The notes under the pieces are model-generated. The model worked only from the letters and a program-made list of their open reading frames with translations. It made no database searches and was not told the DNA's origin. Positions 31,132-61,191 of a stretch of 64,000 nt of DNA are shown piece by piece. Source of the stretch: Gammaproteobacteria bacterium (GTDB lineage Bacteria; Pseudomonadota; Gammaproteobacteria; GCA-001735895); NCBI GenBank assembly GCA_050298595.1, contig JBNKUM010000101.1, positions 1 to 64,000 of the forward strand, read 5' to 3'. The translations under genes and the position numbers were made by a program. Position 1 is the first letter of the stretch. Each line of letters begins with the position of its first letter.

Positions 31132-31826
31132 TGTCGCAATTCTATATTGATGGTCAAACTGTACCATTTACCCCTGGGCAAACCATCATGCAGGCTGCGC
31201 TGGAGGCTGAGATCTATATCCCGCACCTATGCTTTCATCCTGAATTTCACCCGCACGGTAGTTGCCGGGTGTGCCTGGTTGAGATTGATAAACGCATGTT
31301 TGCAGCCTGTACCTATCCAGCACAGGAGGGGATAGAAGTTTCAAATATCACTCCGGCAGTTCAAAAATGGCGGCAGGAAGTGCTTGAAATGCTGTTCGTT
31401 GAAGGTAACCATGTATGTCCTTCCTGCGAGAAAAGTGGATCCTGTAACCTGCAGTCAGTCGCTGAGTTCTGCGGTATGTTGACACCGCCCTTTCGTTTTC
31501 AGTATCCGAATCGACAGGTCGATGCTAGCCATCCGGATTTTATGCTGGATTACAACCGATGCATTTTTTGTGAGTTATGTGTGAGAGCAAGTCGCGATGT
31601 GGATGGAAAATCTATTTTTTCAATCGCAGGAAGAGGGCATAAGGTACACCTACAGATAGATGCTGATGAAAGTCTGTTGGGAAATAGCAGCTTTGAAAAA
31701 ACAGACCGCGCCGCCACCATCTGTCCGGTGGGTGTGTTTTTACCCAAGGGCAAAGGATTCGATGCGGCTATAGGACATCGGTTATATGACATAGAAACCA
31801 TAGATCAGCAGCAGGTGAAAAAGTGA
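31131..31826 (+). CDS. hoxU: Diaphorase Fe-S subunit HoxU
   Basis: IPHLC, GSCRVC, HVCPSCEKSGSC, RCIFCELCVR and CPVG. Confidence 0.92.
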   Translation: MSQFYIDGQTVPFTPGQTIMQAALEAEIYIPHLCFHPEFHPHGSCRVCLVEIDKRMFAACTYPAQEGIEVSNITPAVQKWRQEVLEMLFVEGNHVCPSCEKSGSCNLQSVAEFCGMLTPPFRFQYPNRQVDASHPDFMLDYNRCIFCELCVRASRDVDGKSIFSIAGRGHKVHLQIDADESLLGNSSFEKTDRAATICPVGVFLPKGKGFDAAIGHRLYDIETIDQQQVKK

Positions 31827-32362
31827 GCGATAAAATTAGAATTGCGACAACTTCACTGGCAGGCTGTTTCGGCTGCCATATGTCGATACTGGATATCGAT
31901 GAAAAAATCATCGATCTGGTTGAGCTGGTTGAATTTAGCCGATCGCCACTGACCGATTTTAAACATGTTGAAAATTGCGATATAGGCATTATCGAAGGCG
32001 CGGTAGCAAACTCGGAAAATGTAGAAGTACTGCGTGAGTTTCGTAAACAGTGCAAGATTATTATAGCGATAGGTGCCTGTGCATTAAATGGTGGCATACC
32101 CGCAATGCGTAATCATTATACGGTTGATGATATCTTCCAGGAATCTTACGTGAATGGCATAGGCCTGGATCATGCGCATATACCTAATGATCCAGAGTTA
32201 CCTAAAATATTGAATAAAGTGCACCCGATACAGGAAGTGGTTAAGGTAGATTATGTGTTGCCCGGCTGTCCTCCCCCAGCTGAACTGATCTGGGAAGTAT
32301 TAAGCGCTTTAATCCAGGGCAGGGAGCCTGTAATTACTCAGGAGATTCTGCAATATGACTAG
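31823..32362 (+). CDS. hoxY: Hydrogenase small subunit HoxY
   Basis: LAGCFGCHMS, GACA and LPGCPP motifs. Confidence 0.93.
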   Translation: MSDKIRIATTSLAGCFGCHMSILDIDEKIIDLVELVEFSRSPLTDFKHVENCDIGIIEGAVANSENVEVLREFRKQCKIIIAIGACALNGGIPAMRNHYTVDDIFQESYVNGIGLDHAHIPNDPELPKILNKVHPIQEVVKVDYVLPGCPPPAELIWEVLSALIQGREPVITQEILQYD

Positions 32363-35243: not shown

Positions 35244-37982
35244 ATGCCAAATAGAATTGCAAGGAAGCTTATTATAGTACTGATTCTTTTCAGCTCTGTG
35301 ATAACCCTGATTATCACTGTTTTACAGTTGTACTTTGAATATGAGGATGAGATCGCCGCTGTAAACGCACACTTCGTTCAGGTTGAACGCAGCTACCTCA
35401 AAAGTATTTCAGAAAATATCTGGGAAGAGGATCCTGAACGCCTTGTTCTTCTCATCAATGGTATAGCGGAGTTTCCGGGTATTGAGTTCGTCAGGGTAAG
35501 AGACAGCGACGGAAAAACCTTAGCTAGCGTTGGGCATAGTTTAGTCCGCCAGTCGATTAAGAAAAACTATTTACTAAATTATACTTTCCGGGGTGCTGAG
35601 AGATTGATCGGGGATCTGGAAGTCGTCGCAAGCCTGTCAGCTATCTATCAGCAACTTTTCAAACGTTTTGGCATTATTCTAGCTTCAAATGCTATTAAAA
35701 CCTTGTTGATTTCAACCTTTTTATTCGCTGTCATTAACTGGTTGCTTACCAGTCAACTTGATTCGATGACTCGCTTTACAAAGAGTATGGATCTTTCTAA
35801 ACCGATGCCTCCACTGCAATTAAAAAGAGGTGTTTTCAGTGGTCGGCATGATGAAGTTGATCAGTTAGCCGACGCTCTCAATTATATGCAGAAAACCCTA
35901 TCTGACACGTTTAGTTCGCTAAAGGAAAGTGAGCAGCGTTTTCGCCAGTTAGCCGAGAATATTAACGAGGTATTCTGGTTAGGTTCTCCCGACTGGAATA
36001 AGGTTTATTATTTAAGCCCGGCATTTGAAAAATTATGGGGAATGAGATGCGAAGATATTTATGAAAGCCCGAAACGATGGATGGATTCAGTCCATGCAGA
36101 CGATAGAGAACAACTGCTAGCTGACATCCCCGGCAAGATAGAGGATATCGAAGATATTATCGACTTTAAGGCGTATCGCGTAAAACAGAAAGATGGACTA
36201 ATACGCTGGATAAAGGCGAGGGCCTACCCGATCCGTGATGGTAGTGGGCAGATAATTCGTATTGCTGGAATTGCAGAAGATATCACTGAAAGTAAACAGG
36301 CTGAAGAAGAGCTCAGAAAACTATCGCGTGCAATAGAATCCAGCTCTTCTGCAATATTCATTACTAACAAACAGGGTACCATAGAATATGTAAATCCCCG
36401 GTTTAGCGATCAAACTGGTTATAGCAAAGAGGTGGCAATTGGGAAAGCTGCTGATTTTTTGCGTTCAAGCAACGCGAAGGATTCTATCTTTGATGATTTA
36501 TGGCAAGCCATTGCCTCTGGAGAAGACTGGAGAGGAGAACTGGATAATCAAACCAGAAATGGTATGCACTTTCGAGCAAGAGTTTCAATTTCAGCGGTCA
36601 AGGATGCTCTTGGTGAAACTACTCACTTTATCGGCATTCAGGACGATGTGACTCATGAATATCTATTGACAGAGCAGCTCAACTATCAGGCCACTCATGA
36701 TGCCTTAACCGGGCTTTATAATCGAATCGAATTTGAACGAAGGTCAGAACAGTTATTTGCCAGCAGCCGAGGAAATGAGGTAGAGCATGCATTGTGTTTT
36801 ATGGATCTTGACCAGTTCAAGCTGATCAACGATACCTGTGGCCATATTGCCGGTGATGAATTATTACGTCAATTAAGCCGTGTGTTGCAGGGGGCTGTTA
36901 GACAAAATGATACCCTGGCCCGGCTAGGTGGAGATGAGTTTGGTGTTTTGATGGAACACTGTTCGCTGGATCAGGCGCATCGGGTTGCTGAATCTCTGCT
37001 CAAGAGTATCCAGGAATACCAGTTTGTATGGGAAGGGAAATATTTTCATGTCGGTGTGAGTATTGGCCTGGTTGCTATAACCCACCAAACCACTAGTTTG
37101 AGTGAGTTACTCAAACAGGCTGATGCAGCCTGCTATATGGCGAAAGACTTGGGGCGTAATCGTATTCATGAATATCACATTGAGGATAGCGGGCTAGCCC
37201 AGCGTCAGGGAGAAATGTTATGGGTAAACCGTATTAGTCAGGCGCTGGAAGAAAACCGCTTATGTTTATATGCACAGCCCATAGTGCCTTTAGATCATTC
37301 AACACAAGAACATTATGAACTGCTGGTCAGAATGGTGGAAGAGGACGGTACGATTATACAGCCGGGAGATTTTTTACCTGCGGCTGAACGATATGATCTG
37401 ATATCAAAAATTGATGAGTGGGTCATGAACAATGCATTTAAATTATTATCCACTCATGTCGAGTTTGTTGATCAAATTGACTTTATTTGTATTAATCTTT
37501 CTGGAGCATCACTAACCAGTGGGGCTTTTCTAGATTCAATCTTTATGAATCTAAATAAGGCAGGCTTTACGCCTGACAAGATATGTTTTGAAGTCACCGA
37601 GACGGTAGCCATATCGAACTTAAGTGCTGCAATAACCTTTATCAGGCTGCTTAAAGATACCGGCTTTCGCTTTGCACTAGATGACTTTGGTAGCGGCCTG
37701 TCATCGTTTGGATATTTAAAAAACCTGCCGGTAGATTTTCTTAAAATTGATGGTATGTTTGTCAAGGACATCGTGGATGACCCTATCGATTATGCAATGG
37801 TAAAATCGATCAATGAAATTGGTCAGGTAATGGGTATGCAGACTATTGCTGAGTTTGTTGAGAATGATGAAATTATGCAAAAGTTAAGACTCATCGGAGT
37901 AGACTTTGCTCAGGGATATGGAGTTGGAAAACCGCAACCACTTGAAGAACTCATTAAAAATTCTCAGACTACAGGCAGCTAA
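35244..37982 (+). CDS. Membrane-anchored PAS/PAS-GGDEF-EAL diguanylate cyclase/phosphodiesterase
   Basis: Two TM segments, HAMP-like region, two PAS domains, ARLGGDEF, ELLVRM and DDFGSGLSS. Confidence 0.92.
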   Translation: MPNRIARKLIIVLILFSSVITLIITVLQLYFEYEDEIAAVNAHFVQVERSYLKSISENIWEEDPERLVLLINGIAEFPGIEFVRVRDSDGKTLASVGHSLVRQSIKKNYLLNYTFRGAERLIGDLEVVASLSAIYQQLFKRFGIILASNAIKTLLISTFLFAVINWLLTSQLDSMTRFTKSMDLSKPMPPLQLKRGVFSGRHDEVDQLADALNYMQKTLSDTFSSLKESEQRFRQLAENINEVFWLGSPDWNKVYYLSPAFEKLWGMRCEDIYESPKRWMDSVHADDREQLLADIPGKIEDIEDIIDFKAYRVKQKDGLIRWIKARAYPIRDGSGQIIRIAGIAEDITESKQAEEELRKLSRAIESSSSAIFITNKQGTIEYVNPRFSDQTGYSKEVAIGKAADFLRSSNAKDSIFDDLWQAIASGEDWRGELDNQTRNGMHFRARVSISAVKDALGETTHFIGIQDDVTHEYLLTEQLNYQATHDALTGLYNRIEFERRSEQLFASSRGNEVEHALCFMDLDQFKLINDTCGHIAGDELLRQLSRVLQGAVRQNDTLARLGGDEFGVLMEHCSLDQAHRVAESLLKSIQEYQFVWEGKYFHVGVSIGLVAITHQTTSLSELLKQADAACYMAKDLGRNRIHEYHIEDSGLAQRQGEMLWVNRISQALEENRLCLYAQPIVPLDHSTQEHYELLVRMVEEDGTIIQPGDFLPAAERYDLISKIDEWVMNNAFKLLSTHVEFVDQIDFICINLSGASLTSGAFLDSIFMNLNKAGFTPDKICFEVTETVAISNLSAAITFIRLLKDTGFRFALDDFGSGLSSFGYLKNLPVDFLKIDGMFVKDIVDDPIDYAMVKSINEIGQVMGMQTIAEFVENDEIMQKLRLIGVDFAQGYGVGKPQPLEELIKNSQTTGS

Positions 37983-47551: not shown

Positions 47552-47844
47552 ATTCCAATTCTTATCGTAATTTTCTCTTTAATCAATTATTGCACTAAAA
47601 CATGTGTATCAATACTAAAAATTAGCCCAATTCTTAAGGGTAATCAGCTATAGTCCCGCCATGCAAAATACCTGTTTTTCTAAAATCTAGAAGCCTGTTA
47701 AGTTTAGGTGATCGTAGCGAGGGAATGACATTTTGAGACCAATATTTCGATCATTTGAGGCGAATAGTAAGCCTATTTAACGAAAATGATCGGATTGTTG
47801 GCCAAAATGCCTTTTCTACAGTAGATGCATCCTAAATCTGACAG

Positions 47845-47942
47845 GCTCATGGGTTGAACTAAATATTGTGGCCGAAGGTGTAGAGAATGAGCAGCAACTC
47901 AATCATCTGAGAGAACTAGCTGTGATGAATATCAGGGCTATA
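47845..47942 (+). pseudogene. C-terminal EAL-domain remnant
   Basis: IVAEGVENEQQLNHLREL then a frameshift to CDEYQGY; nothing upstream. Confidence 0.65.
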
Positions 47943-47949
47943 TGGGTCT

Positions 47950-48640
47950 TTATCCAGATAAACTGGCTTAATCAGGCCGCGGTAATCTGGTTTTTTTGTG
48001 CTTCCGAGGCCACTCAATGTACACCAAGCATGCAGCAAAAAATACCCACAGCATCACTAGCACCATGCACTTCTATGGATGGAACGCATGCTTGAGCGAA
48101 AGATACGCATAACTGATACCAGTACCATCGCCAATCTGGAATGTATCATCGCCTTTTTTGTATCCACTACTATACTGATTCTGGCAGGACTGGTAACCGT
48201 TCTGGTTCCTACTGAACAAGCCATTAATGAGATATCGGATATCCCTTTGCCAGTAATTCAACCACCGATGAATGAGAGATGAAGTTACTGTTACTGGTTA
48301 TTATCTTCAGCTATGTATTTTTCAAGTTTATCTGGAGTTTGCGACAATATGGTATTACCTCAATCATGATAAGTGGGTCACCAATGCCCGTAGACAATAT
48401 CAACGACCAGGCTCGAATCTCATTTGCTAAGCGAAATACCCGTATGTTATCGCTGGCAGCAAACAATCTTAACTCGGGATTAAGAACCTATTACTTCAGT
48501 CTCAGCGTACCTGGATGTTTATAAACCCCTGGATATTCATCTGCATTAGCGCGATGATTATCTGGTTGTTATACTGACGTGAATTCAAATCCAGAACTCT
48601 GGATGAATTAAGTGTCAGCAAGGCTGAACCTGAAAAATAG
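47950..48640 (+). pseudogene. Frameshifted DUF599-family membrane protein pseudogene
   Basis: Fragments WMERMLERKIRITDT..FFVSTTILILAG, FFKFIWSLRQY, NSGLRTYYFS and LY*REFKSR lie in different frames. Confidence 0.75.
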
Positions 48641-48695
48641 CTAAGCAGAATAGCTGTTTATTTGATAAAATCCTGCAGAAATAAAGCGTAAAAAA

Positions 48696-48772
48696 CGGGG
48701 TGTAGCTCAGTCTGGTAGAGCACTGTCTTCGGGAGGCAGGGGCCGGAGGTTCAAATCCTCTCACCCCGACCA
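48696..48772 (+). tRNA. tRNA-Pro (anticodon CGG)
   Basis: Acceptor stem CGGGGTG/CACCCCG, D-arm TAGCTCAGTCTGGTAGAGC, anticodon loop TTCGGGA, T-loop GGTTCAAATCC, encoded CCA. Confidence 0.97.
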
Positions 48773-48854
48773 GTTTAAAGAGCAAAGTAGTTTCAGTTAT
48801 ATCTAATCTAATCTAATCGAAGTCAAGATGAGAAGACGTGCCATGTAAGTTAGC

Positions 48855-49050
48855 TTCAGATCAATAGCTCAAGGATATACCCATAATAACAGGCACCACC
48901 AAGATCATTTAGCGATTACGATAAGAAGGGTGTAGAGAGAGATGGAGCGATGGCAAAAGCCTACCTTAGTGGGCTCTATAAAATTGAAGCAGGTTGGGGA
49001 GTATTTTAGGTGCAGCTATATAACGGTAAGTTGGGCTGTAAATGTTTATA
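48855..49050 (+). pseudogene. C-terminal remnant of a REP-associated (Y1) tyrosine transposase
   Basis: DQ*LKDIP / QAPPRSFSDY...ERDGAMAKAYLSGLY / LKQVGEYFRCSYITVSWAV, across frameshifts, matches the HTH tail of RAYT-like transposases. Confidence 0.6.
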
Positions 49051-49365
49051 ATACCTTACATTTAACTGTAATAAATAAGTATTGGGTCCCCAGAATCCTA
49101 CACCTTAAAAACATGAATTGATCAGAGTTCCCCTAATCAATAGTAAGTCTAATATCTGCCGACTGTACTCATTTAAGGTTTATTAATGATTGATTACCGA
49201 GTCATCCATATTCAGAAGTTGTCGGTCACTTAGGAGTCCTTGTGCCGCCATTTATTACAGGTCCCTGGGAGCTATAGAATCTTGACTGGATTTCAGAGAA
49301 TGATATTGGCAGATAGGTCTTTGTATACTTCTTTTACCCTCTATTGGTCATCTGAAGATCCATTT

Positions 49366-50625
49366 TTACAGTTCAGGTATTTTATCTAACCAGGCCTGAA
49401 AATATGTAGATCGAACTATATGATTTGTATTTTCAGGCCAACGTCGCAGAATTTCATGCTTAATTTGGTTTAGACGGTAGAGTGTTTCACGAGCCATGGA
49501 CTCCATTTCCATAAGTTCATCCCTTGAGTCTCCAAGTTGCTCAATTAGTGAGGGTGCCTCATCAGGTTTTATACCTGAGCTGGAAATTTGTAAACATAAA
49601 GCATTGATCTGATTTTGCGCGAACTTAAATGCGGCCGATTTTTGATCGACCTGACTGGAAACTGATTCATTAAAAAACTTATAAATATTTAAAATTACTG
49701 CCCAGTTATCGCGTAGTTGCTCTTTGTTTAATGTCTCCGTCGGACTGTCGAGGGTTTGCTGTTGTTTAAATAATGCGACCATTATCTTGATCAGCGACGC
49801 GTCCAACTTCCCTCTATTGGTTTTGATACTGATAATGAGTTGATTCCAATCAGGGGTGCTCTTACTTTGTTCAAGTAGAGCTACAGAAATGTCGGCAACG
49901 GCTAGAACTCTGCCATAGAGACTTAACTCGGAAATACCGCGGGGGTATCCTGAACCATCCAGCCTTTCATGATGCTCAAAAACAGCGAGTGATACTTCGG
50001 GTTTATATTCTGGGAACTCTTGCAGAATCAGATGAATTATTATGGGGTGTGAGTAGATCTGGCGCCTGAGCTCTGGCGTTAGCCGGGTTTGTCGATCTGT
50101 CAGTGTGGGGTCAATATGCATTTCTCCAAGGTCATGAAAAAGACCTGCAGTAGCTAATTTAATTAATTGATCTTCAGCCAGTGATTTTTCAGTACCGAGG
50201 AAGAGAGATGCCAGTGAGGTGCAGATTGAATGTCGAAACTTTTCTGGCGCCTGAGAACGAGTGATGGTCAACTTATTAGACATGGTACAATTTAATGGTA
50301 TTTTTTTGAAAATACGAACTGCAAGTTTTGGGTCACTTAATGTACGGGCAAAAAAACCAATGTTGAAATCGGAATCTATCAATTTCTCAAATTCTTCAAC
50401 GAGAGTGATATTAGATACGCTATTTTCAATTTTTAAACTGTTATCTATTGGTTTTAAAAGTTTATTTTTGAGAAGTTTCTGATACACGCTTTGGTTGATT
50501 TTCGCGCCGGAAGCTAACAGTTTTACTCCTCTTTCATTGTATATGTCTTCGGTCGTTGAAATATTTAAAGACTCTGATGCGCCTATCAGATTTTTGATGT
50601 AGTTATGACTATCCTGTTCGGACAT
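49366..50625 (-). CDS. HD-GYP domain c-di-nucleotide phosphodiesterase
   Basis: GLFHDLG, EHHERLDGSGYPRG and VLAVAD. Confidence 0.88.
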   Translation of the reverse strand: MSEQDSHNYIKNLIGASESLNISTTEDIYNERGVKLLASGAKINQSVYQKLLKNKLLKPIDNSLKIENSVSNITLVEEFEKLIDSDFNIGFFARTLSDPKLAVRIFKKIPLNCTMSNKLTITRSQAPEKFRHSICTSLASLFLGTEKSLAEDQLIKLATAGLFHDLGEMHIDPTLTDRQTRLTPELRRQIYSHPIIIHLILQEFPEYKPEVSLAVFEHHERLDGSGYPRGISELSLYGRVLAVADISVALLEQSKSTPDWNQLIISIKTNRGKLDASLIKIMVALFKQQQTLDSPTETLNKEQLRDNWAVILNIYKFFNESVSSQVDQKSAAFKFAQNQINALCLQISSSGIKPDEAPSLIEQLGDSRDELMEMESMARETLYRLNQIKHEILRRWPENTNHIVRSTYFQAWLDKIPEL

Positions 50626-51030
50626 TAGATTACCTGTATCACTAGTCGTAGTAATTATTCAATTATGGGTGGTCGGTAATACTAACTAGCCTAAAAAATA
50701 CTATAGTCTAAGTTCACGCCAAGAAATTTAATGTGACGAAGTGGCAATAGGAGAGCGATTTATAAGTATTTAAAAAGTATAATCCGCCATTTTATGCCTC
50801 CGCCTATCTCATTATAATTTTGCTATTTAAAGATGTCCATCTAATCAAAACTAACTAGATTCATGTGTCTCCCCTTATCTGTAGTTACCTACAAGCTATA
50901 GGGAATGACTCAGATGGGTCGTCCTGATCCAATACAGTTATTATCACGCGGAATATTTCAAATTTGATCTCTATTAAAAATGAATTCCATTATTGAATGC
51001 TCTTTATATTTAGCGCTAAATAATCACCAG

Positions 51031-54000
51031 CTAAATAGCTTCCAGTTTAGTAATAAGTGAGCGGAATGCCTCACAATGACCATCGATTAGCTCATAGGGA
51101 AACATAAAGACCGGATCAATATTTGGCACTGCTCTCTTTAGCTGAAAATAGTAATCGATAATCGCTTCACTTGAGTTGTTCTCTGCACCGAAACCAGCTA
51201 AATCCACTATTCCTATGGTTTTCCTGATATCCTTAGTAAAGGCGATCATGTCGACAACCTTCAAAGGGTCTCCAACGACAATGTCTGTACGAATATCTAT
51301 ACTTTGTGTCTGTATGCGCCTCAGAGCCTCCTTTGTTCCGCGTTGGCCTGAACTATTTAACGCAAACTTTAACAGGCTTAGAAATAGCGATACATTCTCA
51401 TCACTAACCGCACTTTGTTCTGAATCACTATTTTGCTGCTGTCGCAACAATGCTTGCGAAAGATAGTGGGTAATATTTGATCGCCTATGCTCTAACTGTT
51501 CAAAATTGCGGTGAAGAAAGTGAAAAGCTTTCTTTTTGGGCCTGCTCATGAGTACATTAAGCTCACCTTTGCGCTTGTCTTCATCGTCACCCTGCGAAAA
51601 TGCAGCGAGATTATAACGAGTGACATCCCATAGATAGAAGATATAATCTCGCTCCTTTCCTTGCAGTGCGGCGCCGGCTCCGTCAAGCAAAACTTCACCA
51701 CGTTTTAGCTTATTCAGAAGTTTGTCTTTTACGTGCTTGATATAGGGTTCATTTTTCATCAAAAAATAACATAGTGCGACATCGGTATCTATGTTGATCT
51801 TCTTGCCGCTAGTTGTTTCAATCTCTGCAATGGAGCGCTCTACGTAATCCATAAAGCGATCTATCATTTGTGTTTCGATGCCTTTAAATTTTCCGCTGGT
51901 TGCTTTTTTTGACGTTTCAACCTGAAACTCACTGGTATCCACCACTACAGGGCAGGGATGTTCCGGCAATCGCCACTGCATAACCTTCAGTTCATCCTCA
52001 TAAACATATTTATTCGAAAACTCTATAATCTCTGGTGGACAACGGTAGTGCTCATCTAGCATTACCGAAGCCTGCTTTATAGATTTAACTAAGGCAAATA
52101 TATGAGACCCGCCGCCTTTAAATCCGCGCGCTTGTGTAGATCTTAAGTGTTCGTCCAGTTCATGGTCTTTAAATAGATAGTCGTCAGTACTCGAATTCTT
52201 TTGTAATACGGTCTGTTTGTCATCACCGACAACCAGGAGTTTTTTTGCTCGAAAAAGCAATGACATGGCATCATCAACTCGACACTGTGTCGCTTCGTCA
52301 ATAATGACCAAATCGAAGGATTGTTCTTTACAGGGCAGCAAAAAAGGTACTACCTGTTTGCGTACAATCCAGATTGGAAATGTTTCGTAAAGAGCTTCTT
52401 TAAACTCATCAAAAACTGCTCCGCTTTTTGGTATCGAAGAAAATTGCTTTAGATCCTCTATTAGAGCCATGATTCGAGTCGAGGCATCGGTTCCGCTACT
52501 GTGCTTAGTTGTTGTAGCGTGTTGTGCTATTTCATGTAAACAAGCAACTAAACGCTCGTAAACTAATTGGTCTCGCTGCTCATACACCTTGGCTATTTTT
52601 TCCAGATCACTTTGAATTGAAGTGTGTGTGTTGCTTGCTGCACTGTTAAAATTTCTAGATACGCTGAAAAACAATGCCAGGGCCTGATTAGGACGATCAT
52701 TAAGCCGAATGGATTCGTGGATCTCTCTTAACAATTTCCATAAATCAGCTGAGCAGCTTTTGGAGAATTTCAGTATTTGGACCTGATTGTTCACCATCTC
52801 TAATAAAAGCTGAGCCTGCCTTTGCAGTTCACTGCGAAATCCTATGCGTAATTTCTGTTCTACGCGTGTTAAGACTCTCCTGGATTTTAGGAGCTGTTCT
52901 TCAAATACTGTTTCAAGGTGGCGAATCAATTCGTGTCGCATAGATGTTCCGAGTAATTCGAGAAAATCCTCTTTAGACTCGATCATAGATTTTGATAGTT
53001 TCGAGAGAATCGAAATATCACCTTTTAAGATTGAAATGTCTTCGTTTGTGCGAGATGGATCAGCGTTTACCGATGAAAGATTGAAGTAACTGTAACACTG
53101 CTCCATGTTAGCTTTAATGAGTTGTCTTCGGTTGTTGATAAAGTTAGAGATCAAGGTGCGATGTTTATTTTTAGAGTCGAGCAGTATTTCTAAAAACTCA
53201 ACTAGACTGGAAGTATTTGTCTGAAATTCATACTTGTGAGGCTCAATATTTTCAAAAGGTAGGTCACTGCCCATATGGAGAGACAGTTTATTATTAATAG
53301 TGGCGTCCAATTGAGCTAATTGTTGATCTAAAGTCTGAAGTTTTTTTTCAATGTTTTCACGGATGTTTATCGTACCCACGTTACTGGTTTTAAGGGGTTT
53401 AACCAGTTTATCGAGTACCTCAGTTAGATTGGTATTATTAACATCTATTTCATCAACTATTTTGATAGCGTTGAATAGCAGATCGTTATGACTCCTACCG
53501 CTAGAGTGTCCATTGCGCTCGCTCGAAAGATATTGCTGAATCTTTTCTACTAAAGCTTCTATTGCACCTTTTTGATCACTAACAATGAGTGCACGTTTTT
53601 TATTGCAAATACACTGAAGCAATAAATTCATTATTGTGTGTGTTTTGCCTGTACCCGGTGGCCCCTCAAGCAGCAGCAGGTCATGGCATTGAAGTCGTTC
53701 AAATAGTTTACGTGTGCTTTGCGGTAGTCTGCCGGGGACCCACGTCAGATCATCTAACCAGGTATCATTATGTGTCTTAGCTGTAAGTTCAGGTGTCAAA
53801 AATCTGCCTAATAAAGAATCGTAAAATCGATTCATCTTTTGATGGGCAATATGATGAATGCGATCAAGATCGTGTTCGAGCGCCTGATCGATCGGTGCTT
53901 GTAGCTTGGGGGCGCGATATAAATTAACACTGAACAAATCACATTCAACACCATTGAACTTAAGACCACCAAGTATTCCTCCTAAGCCATTTTCGTCGGC

Positions 54001-55284
54001 GTAGCCAAATAAAATCTCGCGTGTTCTATCAAAAATATCATCCTTGACAGGAAGATGTCGGGTCAGGCTGATGCGATCGTTGAGTTGATCAACACTAATA
54101 TGCTGTGCTAGTAAAGTATTGAAAAAATCGTCAATGGGGTCGATACCCGTCCGCTTATTAGAAAATTTTTCTACCAGATGAGCTAGTGCCAGGTGATTTA
54201 AATATATACGACCGTCTTCTGTAGATTCAAGATGTATGCCACGCCCAGACTCGCGAATGCGAATGCGTATATAGTAGAGTGGAAATTGAAAAGTTTTAAG
54301 TGTCTTTTTTATGGTAAACAAACTATCTACAATTTCAAAACCGAGGTAAAAATCGCTGGTTCGGTCGCCGATAAACTGGCTTCTAAACTCACTGGAACGC
54401 TGTGCATCTAGCTCGAAGTAAAATCGACCTTCATTAAAGGCTTTTATTTCCTGCGTTGTTAAGGGAATAGAATACTGTAATAAGGGCGCTTTACTTTTTG
54501 AGTCTTGTGAATTTTCACTTTCTTCCTTCAGGCCGAGTAGGACTTTCCTGTCACCAAAAATTTCAGCGTAATCAACTCTGATGTCTTTTTCATGAAAACG
54601 CTCTCCTAACTTGGGCTGATAGTAATCCCCTCCAGCCTTTGACTTAGTTGATGGGTTATTCTGGGGTGGCGAGGATGGTGCTTTACTGATTGCATTTTTT
54701 TCATTACTGGATAGCTTCTCGGCCAGGTTCGGGCGATAATTCGTAATCCTTTGCAGTACATCCTTGCGCAAAGAAAGATCGCTAGTAATACTTTTGCTAC
54801 CCTTCACAAAACTGAATTGAAATAACTTGTGATAGGAAATAATGCTTTCTAGAACGTCGTTAGGATGTGCAAGTGCGCTGTTATAAAGAAGTGCATCCAG
54901 GGCATTAAGACTGCGTCGGCCAACAGTGATGTAACCAGAAGACCCAGAACGTTGTTCAATATCCTGAATAATAAGATTATCCAAATCCATTCGTGATGAT
55001 TTAAAATAAAAGTATTCGTGATTGGAAAAATTTACAGATCGCTCAAGCGGCGTGAGTGATTTAGCCGTTTTCTGTTCAATATATATTTCCCTTACACAAG
55101 CGCGAAATTTACCAAACACAAAACGGGGAACAAAAATTTTTCGCTTTTCACTGGTGTTTTCCAGGGCATAGACATAAAAACCATGATCATTTTTTATACA
55201 ACTGATACGAAATATGTTTTTTCTGTCAGCGCGTTTAGTAAGACTCTTTGGTTTGGTTCTGTGCTTAAAAAGTTTATATATCAT
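51031..55284 (-). CDS. Large superfamily-1 (Upf1/DNA2-like, AAA_11/AAA_12) helicase
   Basis: EGPPGTGKT, IIDEATQ, VVGDDKQ, LDEHYRC, LQGKERD and LNVLMSRPK; long helical insert between motifs I and II; unassigned N- and C-terminal domains. Confidence 0.88.
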   Translation of the reverse strand: MIYKLFKHRTKPKSLTKRADRKNIFRISCIKNDHGFYVYALENTSEKRKIFVPRFVFGKFRACVREIYIEQKTAKSLTPLERSVNFSNHEYFYFKSSRMDLDNLIIQDIEQRSGSSGYITVGRRSLNALDALLYNSALAHPNDVLESIISYHKLFQFSFVKGSKSITSDLSLRKDVLQRITNYRPNLAEKLSSNEKNAISKAPSSPPQNNPSTKSKAGGDYYQPKLGERFHEKDIRVDYAEIFGDRKVLLGLKEESENSQDSKSKAPLLQYSIPLTTQEIKAFNEGRFYFELDAQRSSEFRSQFIGDRTSDFYLGFEIVDSLFTIKKTLKTFQFPLYYIRIRIRESGRGIHLESTEDGRIYLNHLALAHLVEKFSNKRTGIDPIDDFFNTLLAQHISVDQLNDRISLTRHLPVKDDIFDRTREILFGYADENGLGGILGGLKFNGVECDLFSVNLYRAPKLQAPIDQALEHDLDRIHHIAHQKMNRFYDSLLGRFLTPELTAKTHNDTWLDDLTWVPGRLPQSTRKLFERLQCHDLLLLEGPPGTGKTHTIMNLLLQCICNKKRALIVSDQKGAIEALVEKIQQYLSSERNGHSSGRSHNDLLFNAIKIVDEIDVNNTNLTEVLDKLVKPLKTSNVGTINIRENIEKKLQTLDQQLAQLDATINNKLSLHMGSDLPFENIEPHKYEFQTNTSSLVEFLEILLDSKNKHRTLISNFINNRRQLIKANMEQCYSYFNLSSVNADPSRTNEDISILKGDISILSKLSKSMIESKEDFLELLGTSMRHELIRHLETVFEEQLLKSRRVLTRVEQKLRIGFRSELQRQAQLLLEMVNNQVQILKFSKSCSADLWKLLREIHESIRLNDRPNQALALFFSVSRNFNSAASNTHTSIQSDLEKIAKVYEQRDQLVYERLVACLHEIAQHATTTKHSSGTDASTRIMALIEDLKQFSSIPKSGAVFDEFKEALYETFPIWIVRKQVVPFLLPCKEQSFDLVIIDEATQCRVDDAMSLLFRAKKLLVVGDDKQTVLQKNSSTDDYLFKDHELDEHLRSTQARGFKGGGSHIFALVKSIKQASVMLDEHYRCPPEIIEFSNKYVYEDELKVMQWRLPEHPCPVVVDTSEFQVETSKKATSGKFKGIETQMIDRFMDYVERSIAEIETTSGKKINIDTDVALCYFLMKNEPYIKHVKDKLLNKLKRGEVLLDGAGAALQGKERDYIFYLWDVTRYNLAAFSQGDDEDKRKGELNVLMSRPKKKAFHFLHRNFEQLEHRRSNITHYLSQALLRQQQNSDSEQSAVSDENVSLFLSLLKFALNSSGQRGTKEALRRIQTQSIDIRTDIVVGDPLKVVDMIAFTKDIRKTIGIVDLAGFGAENNSSEAIIDYYFQLKRAVPNIDPVFMFPYELIDGHCEAFRSLITKLEAI

Positions 55285-55929
55285 TTATCTAACCAGCAAA
55301 GAAACGCGTCGATTTCTAGCGCGTGCGTCCCTAAGTTCTTTACCTCGCATACCCTTGGTGTCTACCACAGGTCGCGTGTCGGCATAACCAATTACACGGA
55401 GTCTGTTTGAGGAAAACCCGAGATGCATTAAATGAAGAATGACGCTACTAGCGCGCTTACCGCTCAGGCTCCAATTGGTTACAGTTTCGCCATCGATTAT
55501 TCTGTAGTAGGCGACGTCATCGGTATGACCTTCGACATCTATAAGATAATCCGTAGCAAGGATTACTTTGAGTAATGGGTTGATGGTGTTAAGTACGTCG
55601 TTCTTAATTACTGATTTACCTTGATCAAAAAAAATGTTGGTATCCAGATCAAGGCGTACACCATCGCTATCCGAGTGAACTGATGCACCGGGCACACCCG
55701 GTTGTCCTTTAATGATTTTATCGAGTGATTCTGTCAACTCAGCTAATGTATCCTTATTACTGCCACTCATCGCACTTCTAATCATTTCGAACGAGCCTAC
55801 TTCTATATTACTCATAGTCAGTAGCATCACGAAAAATACACATAGAATTACCATTAAGTCGCCGAAGCTTATGTAAAAAGCATCTAGCCCCTCGTCGTGT
55901 TTTTCTGTTGTTAATTCGTCAAGATTCAT
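55285..55929 (-). CDS. MotB/PomB-like protein with OmpA-type peptidoglycan-binding domain
   Basis: TM FYISFGDLMVILCVFFVMLL with the conserved Asp; plug-like helix; VEGHTD, NWSLSGKRASSV, GYADTRP and RNRRV. Confidence 0.9.
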   Translation of the reverse strand: MNLDELTTEKHDEGLDAFYISFGDLMVILCVFFVMLLTMSNIEVGSFEMIRSAMSGSNKDTLAELTESLDKIIKGQPGVPGASVHSDSDGVRLDLDTNIFFDQGKSVIKNDVLNTINPLLKVILATDYLIDVEGHTDDVAYYRIIDGETVTNWSLSGKRASSVILHLMHLGFSSNRLRVIGYADTRPVVDTKGMRGKELRDARARNRRVSLLVR

Positions 55930-56732
55930 TTAGCAGATTCCAGTTTGACATTCATTGTCACTGGATTTAGACGCCTGTTTTCTCTTTGTAAAAGGATATT
56001 AACTCGATTCATGAGCAACTTATGCGTTTCGACATAAAGTGTATTGTGATTTTCTAAACGACCGGCAAGTGGAGTAAATATCAGGGAGCCCAGGATCGAG
56101 CCGAAGGCAGTCGTCATCAGTGCCAGTGACATGGCGGGGCCTATCATTGACGGATCATTTAAGGACTGCAAAACTTCAATCAAACCAATGACTGTACCAA
56201 GAAGGCCTAAGGACGGAGCAATTTTTGCTCCTTTGTTTAGTAAAGAGACTGTGACTTTTTGTGTTAAATAAATACTAGCGACTTTATTTGCGATTAATTC
56301 CTCAATTTCTTCATAGAATAATTTTTCTTTTGCCATATGTACAATGTCATTGAGCAATTCGCCAGTAATCTCATCACCTGTGCGTAAACTAAATATGCTA
56401 TCTCCTGTAATAATAATTTCATCTAGCTCGTTAATCTGTGCAGTCACCGCATTGATTGGATTAATAAAAATAGAGCGAAAAGTGTGAGTTATTACCTGTA
56501 AAAATACGGCAAAATTAAACTGAAAAAGAAGGCACGCGAAGGTTCCGCCTAATACAAAGAAAAAGCTACGCAAATCTTTATATAATATCTCACTAGCTTG
56601 ACCGTTTTCGGCACTGAATCCCACAGCAGTCATAAGCGCCGCTATAAGCAGACAGGTGCTAACTAAAACCGATATAGGATCAATAATGTTTTTAGGTGGA
56701 GATAGATATTTATTTTCTTTCAGGCCATTCAT
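55926..56732 (-). CDS. MotA/PomA-like ion-channel subunit
   Basis: Four hydrophobic segments; VLGGT, APSLGLLGTVIGL and DPSMIGPAMSLALMTTAFG. Confidence 0.9.
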   Translation of the reverse strand: MNGLKENKYLSPPKNIIDPISVLVSTCLLIAALMTAVGFSAENGQASEILYKDLRSFFFVLGGTFACLLFQFNFAVFLQVITHTFRSIFINPINAVTAQINELDEIIITGDSIFSLRTGDEITGELLNDIVHMAKEKLFYEEIEELIANKVASIYLTQKVTVSLLNKGAKIAPSLGLLGTVIGLIEVLQSLNDPSMIGPAMSLALMTTAFGSILGSLIFTPLAGRLENHNTLYVETHKLLMNRVNILLQRENRRLNPVTMNVKLESAK

Positions 56733-56757
56733 ACAAGCTTCTCACAGTCGTTCTTTT

Positions 56758-57867
56758 TTAATCAGTAGATGTTGGTTTATCAATATTCGCCAGCTGATTT
56801 CGTCCTATGTCATATACCACTAGCTGCTCTTGTATTCCTCTTTTGTAGACACTCGTATCAGTACCGGGAAGCACAGAAAATCGGACGATGTAACCATCTA
56901 CTACGGATATCAGTATTTTCATTCCTCGCCGCAAGGATTTAATAGTTGCCTGCTCCATTGGATTGACGGCCATTATTTGAAAATCGTTTCGCTTTGAGTC
57001 ACGAGCCTTAAAAGTATCGTCCTCAACATAAAGAAGATCTGCTGTTCTTTTTTCCAGGTTTGCCATTTCAGCGTTGTCAAAAAATAATATACCAATTGGG
57101 ATGTTATCGTCTTCATCAAAGGTAATAAGACAACGTGATTTAAAACTCGGAACACGATCAAGCATGTGGGTTGGAATATCAATTAATTTTTTTAGTGATT
57201 TAACCTTTACGATACGCCGTTTTAGATCAACGTGTTCTACGCGACATATTTTAGTATTCGCCGGAAGCAAATCCGATGAGTTATTAGCAATCGCAGCCTG
57301 GCTGGCAGCCATTTTTTCGGCAATAAGCTGGTCAGTCAACAGACTTACCTGTTGCATTAGGGATTTGTTTTCAGAGGTAAGTTTCTCTACTACTTTCGCT
57401 AATGATTTATTCGATTTTAATTCTTCACTATGCCCCTTTTGCAGAAGTTCAGGGCCATATTTTTGCGATTGATGCCTGGCGATTTCGTTGTAAAAGCTTT
57501 GCAGGATGGTCCCGATACGATTTTTTTCAGGCAATTCGAAGCGGACACATGGCAAATATTCACTCACGTCTAATTCAGTCGAATTAGATGACGGATTTTC
57601 GGTGGCTTTTGCACGAATTGAGAACACAAAACTATCCAGGCAAGATAAAATATTTTCCAGATTTGCTACAAAGCCATGGGCTTCAAGTACAGTGCATATC
57701 GTTGTGACAGGATTTGAAAATAAGACTTTATCAATGGTTACGTAGAAAAACTTCTGATTTGTTTCATATTCCACGGCTGATAGATCGAGATTGAGTGACG
57801 CCTTACTTAGATTCGCCTCACTTGATTGCGATATGACTGTTAGTTTCTCTTTATCAAAAAAGACCAT
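56758..57867 (-). CDS. Hypothetical protein with central coiled coil and beta-rich C-terminal domains
   Basis: 369-aa ORF heading the operon; heptad stretch ELKSNKSLAKVVEKLTSENKSLMQQVSLLTDQL; no TM segment or signal peptide seen. Confidence 0.75.
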   Translation of the reverse strand: MVFFDKEKLTVISQSSEANLSKASLNLDLSAVEYETNQKFFYVTIDKVLFSNPVTTICTVLEAHGFVANLENILSCLDSFVFSIRAKATENPSSNSTELDVSEYLPCVRFELPEKNRIGTILQSFYNEIARHQSQKYGPELLQKGHSEELKSNKSLAKVVEKLTSENKSLMQQVSLLTDQLIAEKMAASQAAIANNSSDLLPANTKICRVEHVDLKRRIVKVKSLKKLIDIPTHMLDRVPSFKSRCLITFDEDDNIPIGILFFDNAEMANLEKRTADLLYVEDDTFKARDSKRNDFQIMAVNPMEQATIKSLRRGMKILISVVDGYIVRFSVLPGTDTSVYKRGIQEQLVVYDIGRNQLANIDKPTSTD

Positions 57868-58355
57868 TGTTTAATTCTTGCTCATTTTAGCTATGAAAAA
57901 ATTATGAAATCCATTTATCTCACTTTCACTTGCGTTAATATTTGCAGCCGCGCTTTATAATTTTGTCAAATGATCTCGTCATAGCACGTATCACAGAACA
58001 GCTGCAACAAACAGTCTTAAAACTATCGGCGAAGCATCAGTAAATCAAGAGAATCGAGTGTCCTGTGAGAAATTTTGCAAAATATGTCATCTACCAAAGT
58101 AATTATTTCAATCTCAAAAGATCTTTGGTAGCTGTCTTAAAAACGGTTAGTTAGATTAAATGCGACTTCATTTTATGGAAAAGATAGCGCCTCAGCTTCT
58201 TGAATAACAATAAACTAAAAATTATATTGTATTGTTGTAATCATTCTTATTGCCTTTCACGAATTGTTTGCTGGAACTGCGTTTTAGTGTAGTAGTTTTT
58301 TGTCTACTGAGGATCAGTTCTCTTTATTAATTTAAAAAATACAAACAAAATACGT

Positions 58356-58399
58356 AGAGGACTGCGCGGATAGCGACGTAACGATCAGCGTAGTCCTCT
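58356..58399. repeat. GTAG-initiated REP-like hairpin
   Basis: AGAGGACTGCGC...GCGTAGTCCTCT 12-bp stem with one G:T pair. Confidence 0.45.
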
Positions 58400-58724
58400 G
58401 GGTATTTTGTCTTAGAGTTGCTATGTCTGTATTACCTCGCCTTGCCGAGGCCTATGAGAGAAGCCCTTAGCGAAACATTATTATCTGTGCGGACAAACAC
58501 CGCCAGTGCTATGGCAGCAAATCCGCAACAGGAGTGTAAGAGATGTACTGTATTGACAAAGTTAAACGTATGCCAGAAGGCGAGCGTCAGGCTTGTCAAA
58601 TCTTTTGCCTGCCTGAGCGATCTACGGCTCTTGCAAAAATCAGGTTTCTGATAATTATATTAATTGTTATGAATGGCATGTTCGATCGGGGGTGTCTGTA
58701 GACAATAGCAGATGGAGTGTCTAA

Positions 58725-58994
58725 ATGATTTCGTATAATACCAGGTCACATCCCCGCTTATATTATTTAAACTTTGATTTCCAACTGATTTACATATTAA
58801 GTGGCTGTGGCGAGGATAATGTAGTACCCAGCGACACTGATCCGGCACCGATCCCAACAGGAGTTCCAACACTGACCAATCAGCTGCCGAGGGCCCGGAT
58901 CACTGCACACGGGAACTCCATCTCTGGACAGATGGTCACCCTGTATGGCTTCTTCTCTGAGTTGTCGCGGTTGAACCATGAAAATCCAGAATAA
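58725..58994 (+). pseudogene. Truncated lipoprotein with the start of a PKD/Ig-like domain
   Basis: Lipobox LSGC, Pro/Thr linker, then NQLPRARI...SGQMVTLYG before similarity breaks off. Confidence 0.45.
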
Positions 58995-59280
58995 TATTTT
59001 TGGTTACTCTGACTGGAAGTGGAACAGGCCATCTAATGCCTGGTATTCAATCTATGTTTGGGATCATTATGCCTATACTTTGGATTCCGATTCAGAAAGT
59101 ACTTGCTAAGTAATAAGACTTTGATACAGGTCAGTGTGTTTTGATGCCAGATTTGGATGATGTTTAGTTTTTGAGATTTGAGTGGAAGATTTGAGCAGGT
59201 GTCCTGTCAAGTTTAGTGGTGTAGTTTGTGAGTGGGCGGTTTGGTGGCTTACTTAGTTTTTTAGCGCTTAGTTATCCAGG

Positions 59281-60654
59281 GTGATAAATATGTTTAAGAA
59301 TTATTTGTTAATTTATGAACTTAAAGGCTTTACTCCTAAGTTCAGTATTCAGTTTAAATTCATTTTTGCCACTCTACTAGGTGGATTTCTAATTTACGGT
59401 AAAGCCGTTGCGGATTGGGAGACAGTTATCGATGGCGATTCGTTCAACAGTTACCAAAATTTTGAGTCAACCTGGAATTATCAATACCCCTGGGGGTCGG
59501 ACCATAACGGCACCGCCAGAATGTATGGTAGTTCATCCGATCACAATCACACTTACCTGAATAATGGCACCCTTACACTAAAAGCATCAAAAATCAGCTG
59601 GAACGAAGGAAACAGCGGCTCTGACCCTTATTTGCCTATTCACTACCACTCAGGTGCCGTTCACGCAAAGCACAAAGTTGTAATCAACGATAAATATCCC
59701 AACTATGAAATCAAAGCACGCATACAGGCGCCATCATCTCGAGGTACCTGGCCTGCCTTCTGGATGGCGGGTGTGGATAGCTGGCCACCCGAAAGCGACA
59801 TCATGGAATTCAAAGGGAGTAATGAGAACTGGCAGAACACCTATACTGGTAGCTGGCAGAATAAAAAGACCCGCGTTTCGAACCCAGGAAACTGGCATAC
59901 GTATCGTATATGGATGAGCAAGAAAAATGATACAGATGTTAATATTCACTATTACATTGATGGCCAGTGGCAGGCTCAACACGTCGCTAATTTCGTCAAT
60001 AAACCCATGTGGATAATTCTCAATCTACAAATGGAAGGCTCATCTGGTAATCCAGGCCCGAATAGCGATACCCACATGCTCGTGGATTGGGTATATGTCG
60101 GTCGTAGCGTGCAAGAGAGTGCTTCGCTATCTGACTACGCTTTCTGTGCTAACGAGTGGGAAACCTGTGTTTTTTCAGGCACCCGAGACGTAGCATACGG
60201 CGCAGATGGAAAGTTTTATCATCAAACTGCAACCAACAGTATCAGCTGTAATAACGAAACGTTTGGGGATCCTATTCGCGGTACCAGAAAAGCATGCTAC
60301 GTTTCCATGACTCCCTCTTACAAATCCATGTCGTTATCCGATGTGTCTACACCCAACAAATTAAGTTGTACTACAGGTAGTATTGATAGCTGGGAGAACG
60401 GATTTATACTAAATAACTTTACTGTCACCAATAACAGTGACGCCATTGTTAGAAATTGGTCAGCCGATCTAGTATTTGGTCGTTCCGTAACAATTACCAA
60501 TGCCTGGGGAGTCACTATATCAGGTACAGGAGACAAACTAACCGGAACCAATGTTGACTACAATGGTTATCTTGAACCTGGGCAAAGTGCAACCTTTAGC
60601 ATGCAGGGTATATCGAGCTCATCAGTCGACATGCCAGCCTGCAGCGCTGAATAG
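59281..60654 (+). CDS. Secreted GH16 glycoside hydrolase (endo-beta-1,3-galactanase-like) with a small Cys module and C-terminal CBM2
   Basis: YPWGSDHNG, WPAFWM and catalytic ESDIME (ExDxxE); module C..E..TC.FSG...YGADG...C.N..FGDP....KAC; CBM2 pattern (SWENGF, VTNNS, W, ITNAW, YNGYLEPGQS). Confidence 0.85.
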   Translation: MINMFKNYLLIYELKGFTPKFSIQFKFIFATLLGGFLIYGKAVADWETVIDGDSFNSYQNFESTWNYQYPWGSDHNGTARMYGSSSDHNHTYLNNGTLTLKASKISWNEGNSGSDPYLPIHYHSGAVHAKHKVVINDKYPNYEIKARIQAPSSRGTWPAFWMAGVDSWPPESDIMEFKGSNENWQNTYTGSWQNKKTRVSNPGNWHTYRIWMSKKNDTDVNIHYYIDGQWQAQHVANFVNKPMWIILNLQMEGSSGNPGPNSDTHMLVDWVYVGRSVQESASLSDYAFCANEWETCVFSGTRDVAYGADGKFYHQTATNSISCNNETFGDPIRGTRKACYVSMTPSYKSMSLSDVSTPNKLSCTTGSIDSWENGFILNNFTVTNNSDAIVRNWSADLVFGRSVTITNAWGVTISGTGDKLTGTNVDYNGYLEPGQSATFSMQGISSSSVDMPACSAE

Positions 60655-60759: not shown

Positions 60760-61191
60760 CCTGGAATCCGCAGTTGGACGAGTTGAAGTGCGTTTGAAGT
60801 GGTATAGATCAAGGCGTGACGACGCGGAATAGCCAGCTATTCCAGGGAGTTACAAAGCTTCCGCATCCTGCTCACGCCCCTTACCTATGTCCCTATAGGC
60901 AACGTGTCCCTATAGGCAACGTAGAGATACGCCGCCTCAAACGTGCAATTAAGCTCGTAGTGGGATTCACCTGCTGGGTTTTCAGGATGGCTGCTGTTAT
61001 TTCGCGAATGCATGGACGTAGGTGGTAGGGCGAAGCACGACTCCAGGGAGGGAGGAGGTAGGGCGAAGCAGGATGCCTGAGCCGAGGAAGCCAGAGCTGA
61101 TGCATAGGAGCGTGAATAGATAAACCGACTGTTATGCCCTACGAAACAGTGGGTTACCATCCAACCCGGGCGGTCAACTGCGGAATCTTGG
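60760..61191. mobile_element. Non-autonomous MITE-like element (432 bp)
   Basis: 17-bp terminal inverted repeats CCTGGAATCCGCAGTTG / CAACTGCGGAATCTTGG (14/17) flanked by a TTCAA direct repeat (60755-60759 and 61192-61196); no transposase. Confidence 0.7.

Follow-up and report, generated by a model that had tools for sequence, protein, structure and literature searches.

A conserved, non-flagellar MotAB motor and SF1 helicase cassette of Gammaproteobacteria with a possible role in defence

In this work, we have analysed by computation a four-gene cassette in the DNA of a member of the Gammaproteobacteria (GenBank assembly GCA_050298595.1, contig JBNKUM010000101.1, positions 1 to 64,000; these 64,000 nucleotides, the whole stretch analysed, are called the window here). 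The four genes lie co-oriented on the minus strand, from 57867 to 51031, and code for a protein of an unnamed family (gene 1), for the A and B subunits of a MotAB-type ion motor (genes 2 and 3) and for a large, Upf1-like helicase of superfamily 1 (SF1; gene 4). Our results show that they form one tightly packed, evolutionarily conserved unit, and we hold it very probable that this is a real, conserved and accessory module out of flagellar use. Its most likely function, to which we give a probability of about 0.5, would be defence against phages or other invading nucleic acid, by a logic resembling that of the Zorya systems and with unrelated soluble parts.

An earlier note on this DNA, made from the sequence alone, had described the genes as one coupled operon. 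The list of open reading frames (ORFs), the sequence itself and the family scans agree with it in gene number, orientation, lengths, families and junctions. Genes 1 and 2 are separated by a 25-bp gap, genes 2 and 3 share a 4-bp ATGA start/stop overlap (gct aaA TGA atc), and between genes 3 and 4 there is 0 bp, the ATG standing directly after the stop codon (aga taa, then atg ata). The unit is also borne out by comparison between genomes. A scan of one genome per species (185,579 species) with two peptide patterns gave 25 cassette loci, whose titles include Exilibacterium, Teredinibacter, Pleionea, Microbulbifer, Pseudohongiella and Kangiellaceae, together with three metagenome-assembled genomes (MAGs) labelled otherwise. 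Of the related genome loci, 23 continue beyond gene 1, and MotA and MotB come next in each of them; 20 continue beyond MotB, and the helicase comes next in each, with order and strand unchanged. The identities are 50-59% for gene 1, 58-67% for MotA, 63-72% for MotB and 51-59% for the helicase. MotB is thus the best conserved gene of the cassette and gene 1 the least. In the genome of one relative (G021) the locus as first cut out ends after MotB, and there the same contig goes on with an open frame of 1449 aa that matches the N-terminal domain of the helicase. The synteny for which the earlier note had asked reaches down to 30% identity: a very divergent metagenome locus, L049, keeps the order with genes 1 to 4 at 30/46/52/37% identity, and a second one, L052, keeps it at 27/42% before the contig ends, so that both divergent metagenome loci with downstream sequence retain the gene order. 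Profiles of gene 1 and of the helicase N-terminal domain matched the identical 2 of 61 genomes. Since the same order recurs in every related locus of sufficient length, the arrangement of the four genes is far beyond chance.

The motor encoded by genes 2 and 3 is flagellar-type by its sequence, and not ZorA-like. Gene 2 matches MotA_ExbB (PF01618) in Pfam at 4.5e-19 and codes for four transmembrane (TM) helices and a cytoplasmic domain of ~100 aa, with no ZorA-like tail. A phmmer search of the PDB found flagellar MotA/PomA chains only (3.7e-19 to 7e-7), with no ZorA, ExbB or TolQ at E<=1, and no ZorA model of PADLOC (PADLOC-DB v2.0.0, 2023) matched at E<=0.01, in agreement with the compact, PomA-like and tail-less A subunit that had been read from the sequence. 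Gene 3 codes for a TM helix with Asp24 in the expected FGDL motif (FGD24L), a plug, a short linker and an OmpA-like peptidoglycan-binding domain (MotB_plug 6.5e-9, OmpA 9.8e-12 in Pfam). Its PDB matches are MotB/PomB (~1e-12), and the ZorB models of PADLOC match it at 1.3e-14, more weakly than the flagellar MotD model of NCBIfam (1.5e-30). The MotB Asp24, the plug and the TM3/TM4 prolines are conserved among the cassettes. A four-TM A subunit with a TM2-TM3 cytoplasmic domain and TM3/TM4 prolines, and a B subunit with the Asp, a plug and an OmpA-like domain, are the marks of the 'FIT' flagellar class (PMC12505986). The cassette motor carries these features, and its best sequence matches are the flagellar stators PomAB, MotAB and MotPS.

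Could the pair simply be an extra flagellar stator, like MotCD, MotPS or LafTU, standing beside unrelated genes? In favour of this, flagellar MotA/PomA and MotB/PomB are the nearest sequences, the plug, the Asp and the OmpA domain are all there, and 7 of 10 carrier genomes have a FliG_C match. Against this stand the four-gene synteny, kept down to 30% identity, by which the pair is always linked to the helicase and gene 1, and scores far under every stator equivalog cut-off of NCBIfam: gene 2 reaches 97.3 bits for MotP against a cut-off of 394 and 84.3 for PomA against 341, and gene 3 reaches 106.7 bits for MotD against 283. The genome itself has a canonical PomA (356.6 bits, cut-off 341), a second stator and FliG elsewhere, all on other contigs, and the remaining 3 of the 10 carriers, one isolate and two MAGs, gave no FliG_C match. 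In the two MAGs, whose completeness is not known, this absence is for that reason less certain; in the isolate, Microbulbifer rhizosphaerae, the cassette MotA is the best PomA-like match of the genome. As the earlier note had stated for the window, flagellar structural genes were found neither among 34 ORFs of >=110 aa at 1-43.8 kb (NCBIfam, E<=1e-30), where a single chemoreceptor is the lone gene related to flagellum or chemotaxis, nor among the 12 ORFs flanking the cassette (Pfam).

The same is seen in the phylogeny and in the rotor-facing residues. We built a quick maximum-likelihood tree of 39 A subunits, which leaves the deep topology unresolved. In it the 23 cassette MotAs lie on one side of a branch with a support of only 57, eight flagellar stators form a separate group (support 88), ExbB/TolQ a third one (support 100), and ZorA sits on a very long branch; the pair thus falls outside the flagellar stator groups of the same genomes, in answer to a check that the earlier note had proposed. 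In the rotor-facing loop, the eight aligned flagellar stators all keep R(K/R)..L..L(E/M), the charged RK...LE residues of which presumably contact FliG, whereas all 18 aligned cassette MotAs have (T/K/S/E)(G/S/N)..(I/F/L)..(L/M)R instead. The cassette MotAs also share a family-specific N-terminal extension of ~20 residues and a highly conserved cytoplasmic domain of their own, and the cassette B subunit, with 214 aa, is shorter than the MotB/PomB chains of the PDB (250-320 aa). Because of the separate stators and FliG in the same genome, the three carriers lacking a FliG_C match, the separate tree group and the altered loop motif, we conclude from these comparisons that the cassette MotAB is not a working flagellar stator, and an extra stator pair is in our view very improbable. 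The altered loop, together with the conserved domain, suggests that the cytoplasmic face may have been re-tuned for another partner.

Gene 4 codes for an SF1 helicase (AAA_11 3.7e-15, AAA_12 4.1e-6 in Pfam) whose catalytic residues are intact. The Walker A motif (G546-K547-T548) and the D996-E-A-T-Q1000 box, both present as first reported, are invariant in 47 homologues (38-72% identity) with the exception of T999, and the later SF1 motifs are invariant in them too; an insertion of ~260 residues lies between Walker A and the DEATQ box. At E<=1e-3 there are 240 homologues, among them some labelled Bdellovibrionota and Oligoflexus, and nearly all of the best 120 listed have 1370-1500 aa. The best profile matches in PADLOC and NCBIfam are defence helicases: PDC-S37 (6.9e-23), MkoC (1.4e-20), MkoA, Hhe, ProA and PLuB. 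With these, gene 4 shares the SF1 superfamily and a large multidomain format, as was anticipated when the family was first linked to other defence systems. It differs from them in that only the motor core aligns and it is never a full-length match at the curated score: the cut-offs are 1500 bits for ProA and 2000 for Hhe, where gene 4 reaches 71 and 57, and in the PDC-S37 match (78 bits) the best stretch pairs residues 983-1101 with model positions 931-1041 of 1550. To our knowledge, a PUR-like N-terminal domain and an obligatory motor partnership are not part of the Hhe, Mokosh, PDC-S37, ProA or PLuB systems.

The N-terminal 197 residues of the helicase were folded with AlphaFold2 (AF2) from an alignment of 44 rows. 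Residues 11-155 are modelled with a predicted local distance difference test (pLDDT) score of ~90, and residues 9-142 appear as two beta-beta-beta-beta-alpha repeats packed as one domain. VIA-align paired this domain first with Drosophila Pur-alpha (3k44; Z 13.4, root-mean-square deviation 3.0, 127 residues), then with two cyanobacterial proteins of which the function is not known (Z ~10) and then with single PUR repeats (Z ~5); Foldseek likewise put Pur-alpha/PURA repeats I-II first (E 3.5e-5, prob 1.0). Because both structure aligners place Pur-alpha first, the helicase is predicted to begin with a PUR/Whirly-class domain, which in the model superposes on Pur-alpha repeats I-II. The likeness is one of fold: the sequence identity is 9-18%, the domain found no match among PDB sequences at the sequence level, and here it is fused to a bacterial SF1 helicase. 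In Pur-alpha, the PUR fold binds single-stranded nucleic acid. Beside this domain, residues 157-197 (54694-54816; FQFSFVKGSKSITS.L.LRKDVLQ) are among the most conserved of the protein and are nevertheless disordered when the N-terminus is folded alone; this segment may be a docking motif.

At the other end, the last ~95 residues carry the invariant D1345, D1361, Y1378, F1380, R1384 and E1398. In a language-model search of the ESM Atlas, the nearest named clusters were all REase_MTES_1575/DUF559, at a score of 0.89 where the mark of reliability is 0.9, and no match was found among PDB sequences. The domain possibly has an endonuclease fold of the REase_MTES_1575/DUF559 type, which we take as a lead only. 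Such an end would be a further likeness to the SF1 defence helicases, and the Atlas cluster at rank 30 has AAA_12 in 21% of its members. Two resemblances of other parts of the protein, that of residues 226-520 to DUF4011 and that of the YHK...GSKS segment to PLD/HKD, received no support from Pfam and were set aside.

The gene 1 protein found no match in Pfam, PADLOC or NCBIfam. It has 180 homologues at 50-78% identity, mostly in marine Gammaproteobacteria, and belongs to a wider family: a profile search of 1.84 billion cluster representatives gave 131 at E<=1e-3, most of ~350-390 aa and down to ~20% identity. The predicted layout (AF2) is an N-terminal alpha/beta domain, a coiled coil of 45 residues at ~149-195 and two small OB-like beta-barrels at ~199-335. 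The N-terminal domain has the conserved motifs NLENIL(S/A)CLD and FYxEIxxYE. The best Foldseek match was the coiled-coil and OB interdomain of the proteasomal ATPase Mpa (E 2.8e-4, low TM score); VIA matched OB/cold-shock/S1-type barrels at 199-266 (Z 6-8) and an SSB-type OB fold at 273-335 (Z 5.7), and such scores are common. A profile search of the PDB gave coiled-coil noise or nothing, and the Atlas search no usable match. A coiled coil followed by two OB-like barrels is thus a modelled lead only. Gene 1 evolves fastest, and its protein is likely to be an adaptor or specificity part. A complex prediction for MotA, helicase residues 1-230 and the gene 1 protein scored 0.05 against a mark of 0.32, and is informative in neither direction. 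A PilZ-like reading of the RDSxR motif of gene 1 was rejected, the second PilZ motif not fitting.

Zorya pairs the ZorAB motor with soluble nucleic-acid effectors (PMC11890865). The cassette has in common with it a MotAB-superfamily, 5:2-type ion motor with a peptidoglycan-binding B subunit, joined in one operon to soluble proteins that would act on nucleic acid. Zorya type I has a helicase-domain effector, ZorD, and the cassette likewise has a helicase; the TM Asp and peptidoglycan-binding domain of ZorB are found in the cassette MotB as well, a feature common to all MotB proteins. The differences are as clear. The cassette A subunit has 268 aa and no tail, whereas the ZorA1 model PDLC00605 has 700 positions (this model has no match in the genome itself at 1e-20, and finds 677-aa ORFs in 2 of 151 genomes); genes 1 and 4 have no match in PADLOC to the soluble partners that mark Zorya types I-III (ZorC with ZorD, ZorE, or ZorF with ZorG); and the motor is of the flagellar-stator lineage, well apart from the branch of ZorA. 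The term 'Zorya-like' used in the earlier note holds as an analogy of design and fails as family membership, there being neither a ZorA tail nor ZorC-G: the cassette is not a member of Zorya, and what it matches, by analogy, is the design. In such a design, the separate coiled-coil protein of gene 1 may stand in for the ZorA tail.

The cassette is rare, patchy and accessory. Gene 1 was found in 1 of 60 relatives (0/13 congeners, 1/36 family genomes, 0/24 further class members) and in none of 399 further genomes sampled evenly across the class (one genome unscored). The flanks read with Pfam (10 loci, 113 ORFs) differ at each locus and are mostly metabolic or regulatory. In the window, the cassette lies in the AT-richer region described after a tRNA-Pro, with a GC content of 0.385-0.402 across 50-58 kb against 0.406-0.524 in the remaining window. 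This region proved to be variable among congeners: two of them have the DUF599 gene and the tRNA-Pro, and the other 15 of the 16 window genes tested, flanks and cassette included, are unmatched there.

These features raise the question of whether the cassette is cargo that serves a mobile element itself, by competitor exclusion, addiction or maintenance. It is compact and self-contained, has a different location in every genome, and stands in the window in a variable, tRNA-adjacent region of lower GC. In congeners G010 and G012, moreover, a tandem array comes after the tRNA-Pro, and each of its units of ~170 nt closes with a copy of the 3' end of the tRNA (L064, contig C108 of G010, 14900-15300), which suggests repeated integrations at this tRNA. 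The signs of the element itself are absent where they were sought: integrase, transposase and conjugation genes were found beside the cassette neither in the window nor in the 10 Pfam-read flanks, an att-like repeat of the tRNA end is missing within 48600-59400, and plasmids and phages gave no match (see below). A 69-nt relic of the congener repeat unit lies at 61028-61096, ~12 kb from the tRNA-Pro, and lacks the tRNA end. We give the cargo explanation little credence.

Several results weigh against a role in defence. PADLOC scans of the flanks, covering the same 10 loci and ten further ones (L026 was left out because its ORF layout resembles that of L033), found a strong defence-type neighbour in 3 of 20 loci only: a NERD+UvrD protein (3e-37) in L021, an STK_OB kinase (1.8e-78, at 1136-2197) in L028 and MzaA (1.8e-76), with a DRT-associated protein, in L023. 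Weaker matches were generic (OmpA domains, an oxidoreductase, a PLD domain, a kinase domain), the remaining flanks are metabolic or housekeeping, and no ORF flanking the cassette in the window matches PADLOC; as no baseline was computed, 3 of 20 is not to be read as an enrichment. The three neighbours speak for defence, yet the association with defence islands, which the earlier note had proposed to check, does not extend to the window cassette and is weak overall. Among 72,556 plasmids and 50,697 phage records, gene 1 had no match. The conservation of all four proteins is unusually strong and their lengths are uniform; the helicase keeps 51-59% identity over ~1400 residues across several orders, as one would sooner expect of a cellular machine than of an immune gene that evolves fast. 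As for the predicted parts, the gene 1 model is of low to modest confidence (pLDDT 60), and the C-terminal nuclease assignment depends on a sub-threshold Atlas score and is invisible to Pfam, neither PF18741 (REase_MTES_1575) nor PF04480 (DUF559) being detected in any of 18 members at E<=5.

The main rival to defence is a proton- or sodium-powered cellular machine without immune function, for example a membrane-anchored device that would take up, export, repair or survey DNA or RNA and in which the motor would give the helicase force or localisation. That all four proteins are under strong purifying selection and of uniform length would suit it, as would the mostly housekeeping flanks and the missing plasmid and phage matches, and a PUR-like N-domain and OB-like barrels, if the models are right, would suit the handling of a substrate. 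A cellular machine would not lead us to expect so extremely patchy a distribution, with 1 of 60 relatives and none of the 399 genomes of the class sample, nor the absence of conserved uptake or secretion partner genes adjoining the cassette at the 10 loci, and the nearest profiles of its helicase are defence helicases. On balance we judge this explanation unlikely.

It could also be that the system has already been described or catalogued, for instance as a recent DefenseFinder or PADLOC candidate or as an entry of a supplementary table. The PADLOC models that we used date from 2023, and many candidate systems appear in supplements alone, which would suit this explanation. With those models no complete known system matched the cassette, as the earlier note had expected of an arrangement that it did not recognise, and gene 1 and MotA lacked any PADLOC model match at E<=0.01. 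In the full-text literature searched we found no description of a cassette of MotAB and an SF1 helicase, which supplementary candidate lists may hold; sources label the homologues of gene 1 and of the helicase merely 'hypothetical' or 'AAA domain-containing'. The word 'helicase' occurs 0 times in the stator-evolution paper PMC12505986 and in the 5:2-motor review PMC9389320. That the cassette is a catalogued system seems to us improbable.

How might the cassette work in defence? We infer the role itself by analogy with Zorya, and its trigger, the coupling and the target likewise. The PUR-like fold, the defence helicases among the best profile matches, the possible nuclease-like end and the three defence neighbours speak for the role, and we propose the following model. 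The cassette would be a self-contained module of four genes that moves horizontally. Genes 2 and 3 would form a peptidoglycan-anchored, ion-driven motor of the MotA5B2 type, derived from the flagellar-stator lineage and out of flagellar service, and gene 4 an ATP-dependent SF1 helicase with a PUR-like N-domain and a small, possibly endonuclease-like C-domain. At rest, the motor would stay plugged and inactive in the inner membrane. When the envelope is disturbed, MotB would be able to bind peptidoglycan and the ion channel would open; the MotA cytoplasmic domain would then rotate or change its conformation and pass this on to the gene 1 protein. This adaptor would recruit or release the helicase at the site of entry, and the helicase would bind, unwind and perhaps cut the foreign nucleic acid. 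Behind this model stands a tentative evolutionary proposal, somewhat short of even odds: that a stator of flagellar lineage was recruited, independently of Zorya, as membrane sensor or engine of a machine for nucleic-acid surveillance. This would be a second, convergent origin of immunity coupled to an ion motor. On the soluble side, the machine would have an SF1 helicase that carries a PUR domain and ends in a cryptic nuclease-like part, and, in place of the ZorA tail, a coiled-coil/OB adaptor.

The features of the locus are collected in Table 1. The sigma-70-like match upstream of gene 1 is weak, because the promoter and terminator scan as a whole was no better than shuffles (17 found, 21.7 expected). 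The HD-GYP-type neighbour is co-oriented with the cassette, 405 bp downstream; as a fifth member of the cassette it was rejected, having no match in 33 loci (26 related ones, searched by tblastn, and seven from metagenomes).

Table 1. Features of the cassette and its surroundings in the window
Feature	Position	Strand	Basis
Gene 1, cytoplasmic protein of an unnamed family, 369 aa	56758..57867	-	ORF list
Gene 2, MotA/PomA-type A subunit, 268 aa	55926..56732	-	PF01618
Gene 3, MotB-type B subunit, 214 aa	55285..55929	-	MotB_plug + OmpA
Gene 4, SF1 Upf1-like helicase, 1417 aa	51031..55284	-	AAA_11/AAA_12
PUR-alpha-like (Whirly-class) domain of the helicase, residues 9-142	54859..55260	-	predicted fold
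SF1 motor core of the helicase, residues ~527-1250	51535..53706	-	Pfam + conserved motifs
Small conserved C-terminal domain of the helicase, residues ~1325-1417	51034..51312	-	conservation
Sigma-70-like promoter match (weak), 34 nt upstream of gene 1	57901..57929	-	9/12 positions
HD-GYP-type (HD_5) protein, 419 aa, neighbour outside the cassette	49366..50625	-	HD_5 2.6e-17
tRNA-Pro(cgg), edge of the region variable among congeners	48696..48772	+	tRNA call

Some loci of other genomes show further genes near the cassette. In Exilibacterium, the helicase is directly followed by a co-oriented protein with an OmpA domain (514 aa in L011, 17064-18605, where it additionally carries DUF4398; 477 aa in L012, 17106-18536), which may be a lineage-specific fifth gene. 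In Pseudohongiella (L028, 7503-9338), the opposite strand codes, ~660 bp upstream of gene 1, for a protein of 612 aa whose C-terminus is ZorB/OmpA-like (3.5e-19). The other genes of the window are housekeeping: Pst/PhoBRU, polyamine transport, RND efflux, a NiFe hydrogenase, isocitrate dehydrogenase and the chemoreceptor. The hydrogenase cluster at 29374-33791 has four genes (NuoF-like, HoxU-like, small and large subunits) and resembles a bidirectional NAD-linked NiFe hydrogenase. A PAS-GGDEF-EAL protein is encoded at 35244-37979, and like the HD-GYP gene it shows no linkage to the cassette in other genomes. Just upstream of the tRNA-Pro, the DUF599 ORF (48279-48524) has only 81 aa and corresponds to positions 108-180 in a profile of 211; either the ORF, as called, is a truncated one or the true start is located further upstream. 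Between it and the acylphosphatase gene lies a repeat of ~165 bp (47687-47853) that recurs at 85-91% identity on many contigs of the same genome and of one congener (G001), and looks like a dispersed element of the miniature inverted-repeat transposable (MITE) or repetitive extragenic palindromic (REP) kind.

What would this cassette mean for the family of ion motors? Beyond flagella, Ton/Tol, gliding and Zorya, we know of few jobs for 5:2 motors, and the cassette shows that the flagellar branch of the family has been exapted too, with a fair chance that it is an independent invention of a motor-coupled nucleic-acid system. What looks new here, as far as the models and comparisons go, is the Pur-alpha-like N-domain of the helicase, its possible REase-like C-terminus, and the coiled coil and OB-like barrels of gene 1. 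How a motor signals to soluble effectors is an open question even for Zorya, and the cassette offers a minimal version of it: a compact stator, one adaptor-like protein and one helicase. If a flagellar stator was indeed recruited, its great closeness to PomAB/MotAB would allow the methods of flagellar research to be used on the signal that a 5:2 motor passes to its cytoplasmic partner. If the role is defence, the cassette would be a new family, so far mostly of marine Gammaproteobacteria, and would bring a new type of effector, in which a PUR domain is joined to an SF1 helicase. Otherwise, a nucleic-acid machine driven by protons or sodium ions would be stranger still.

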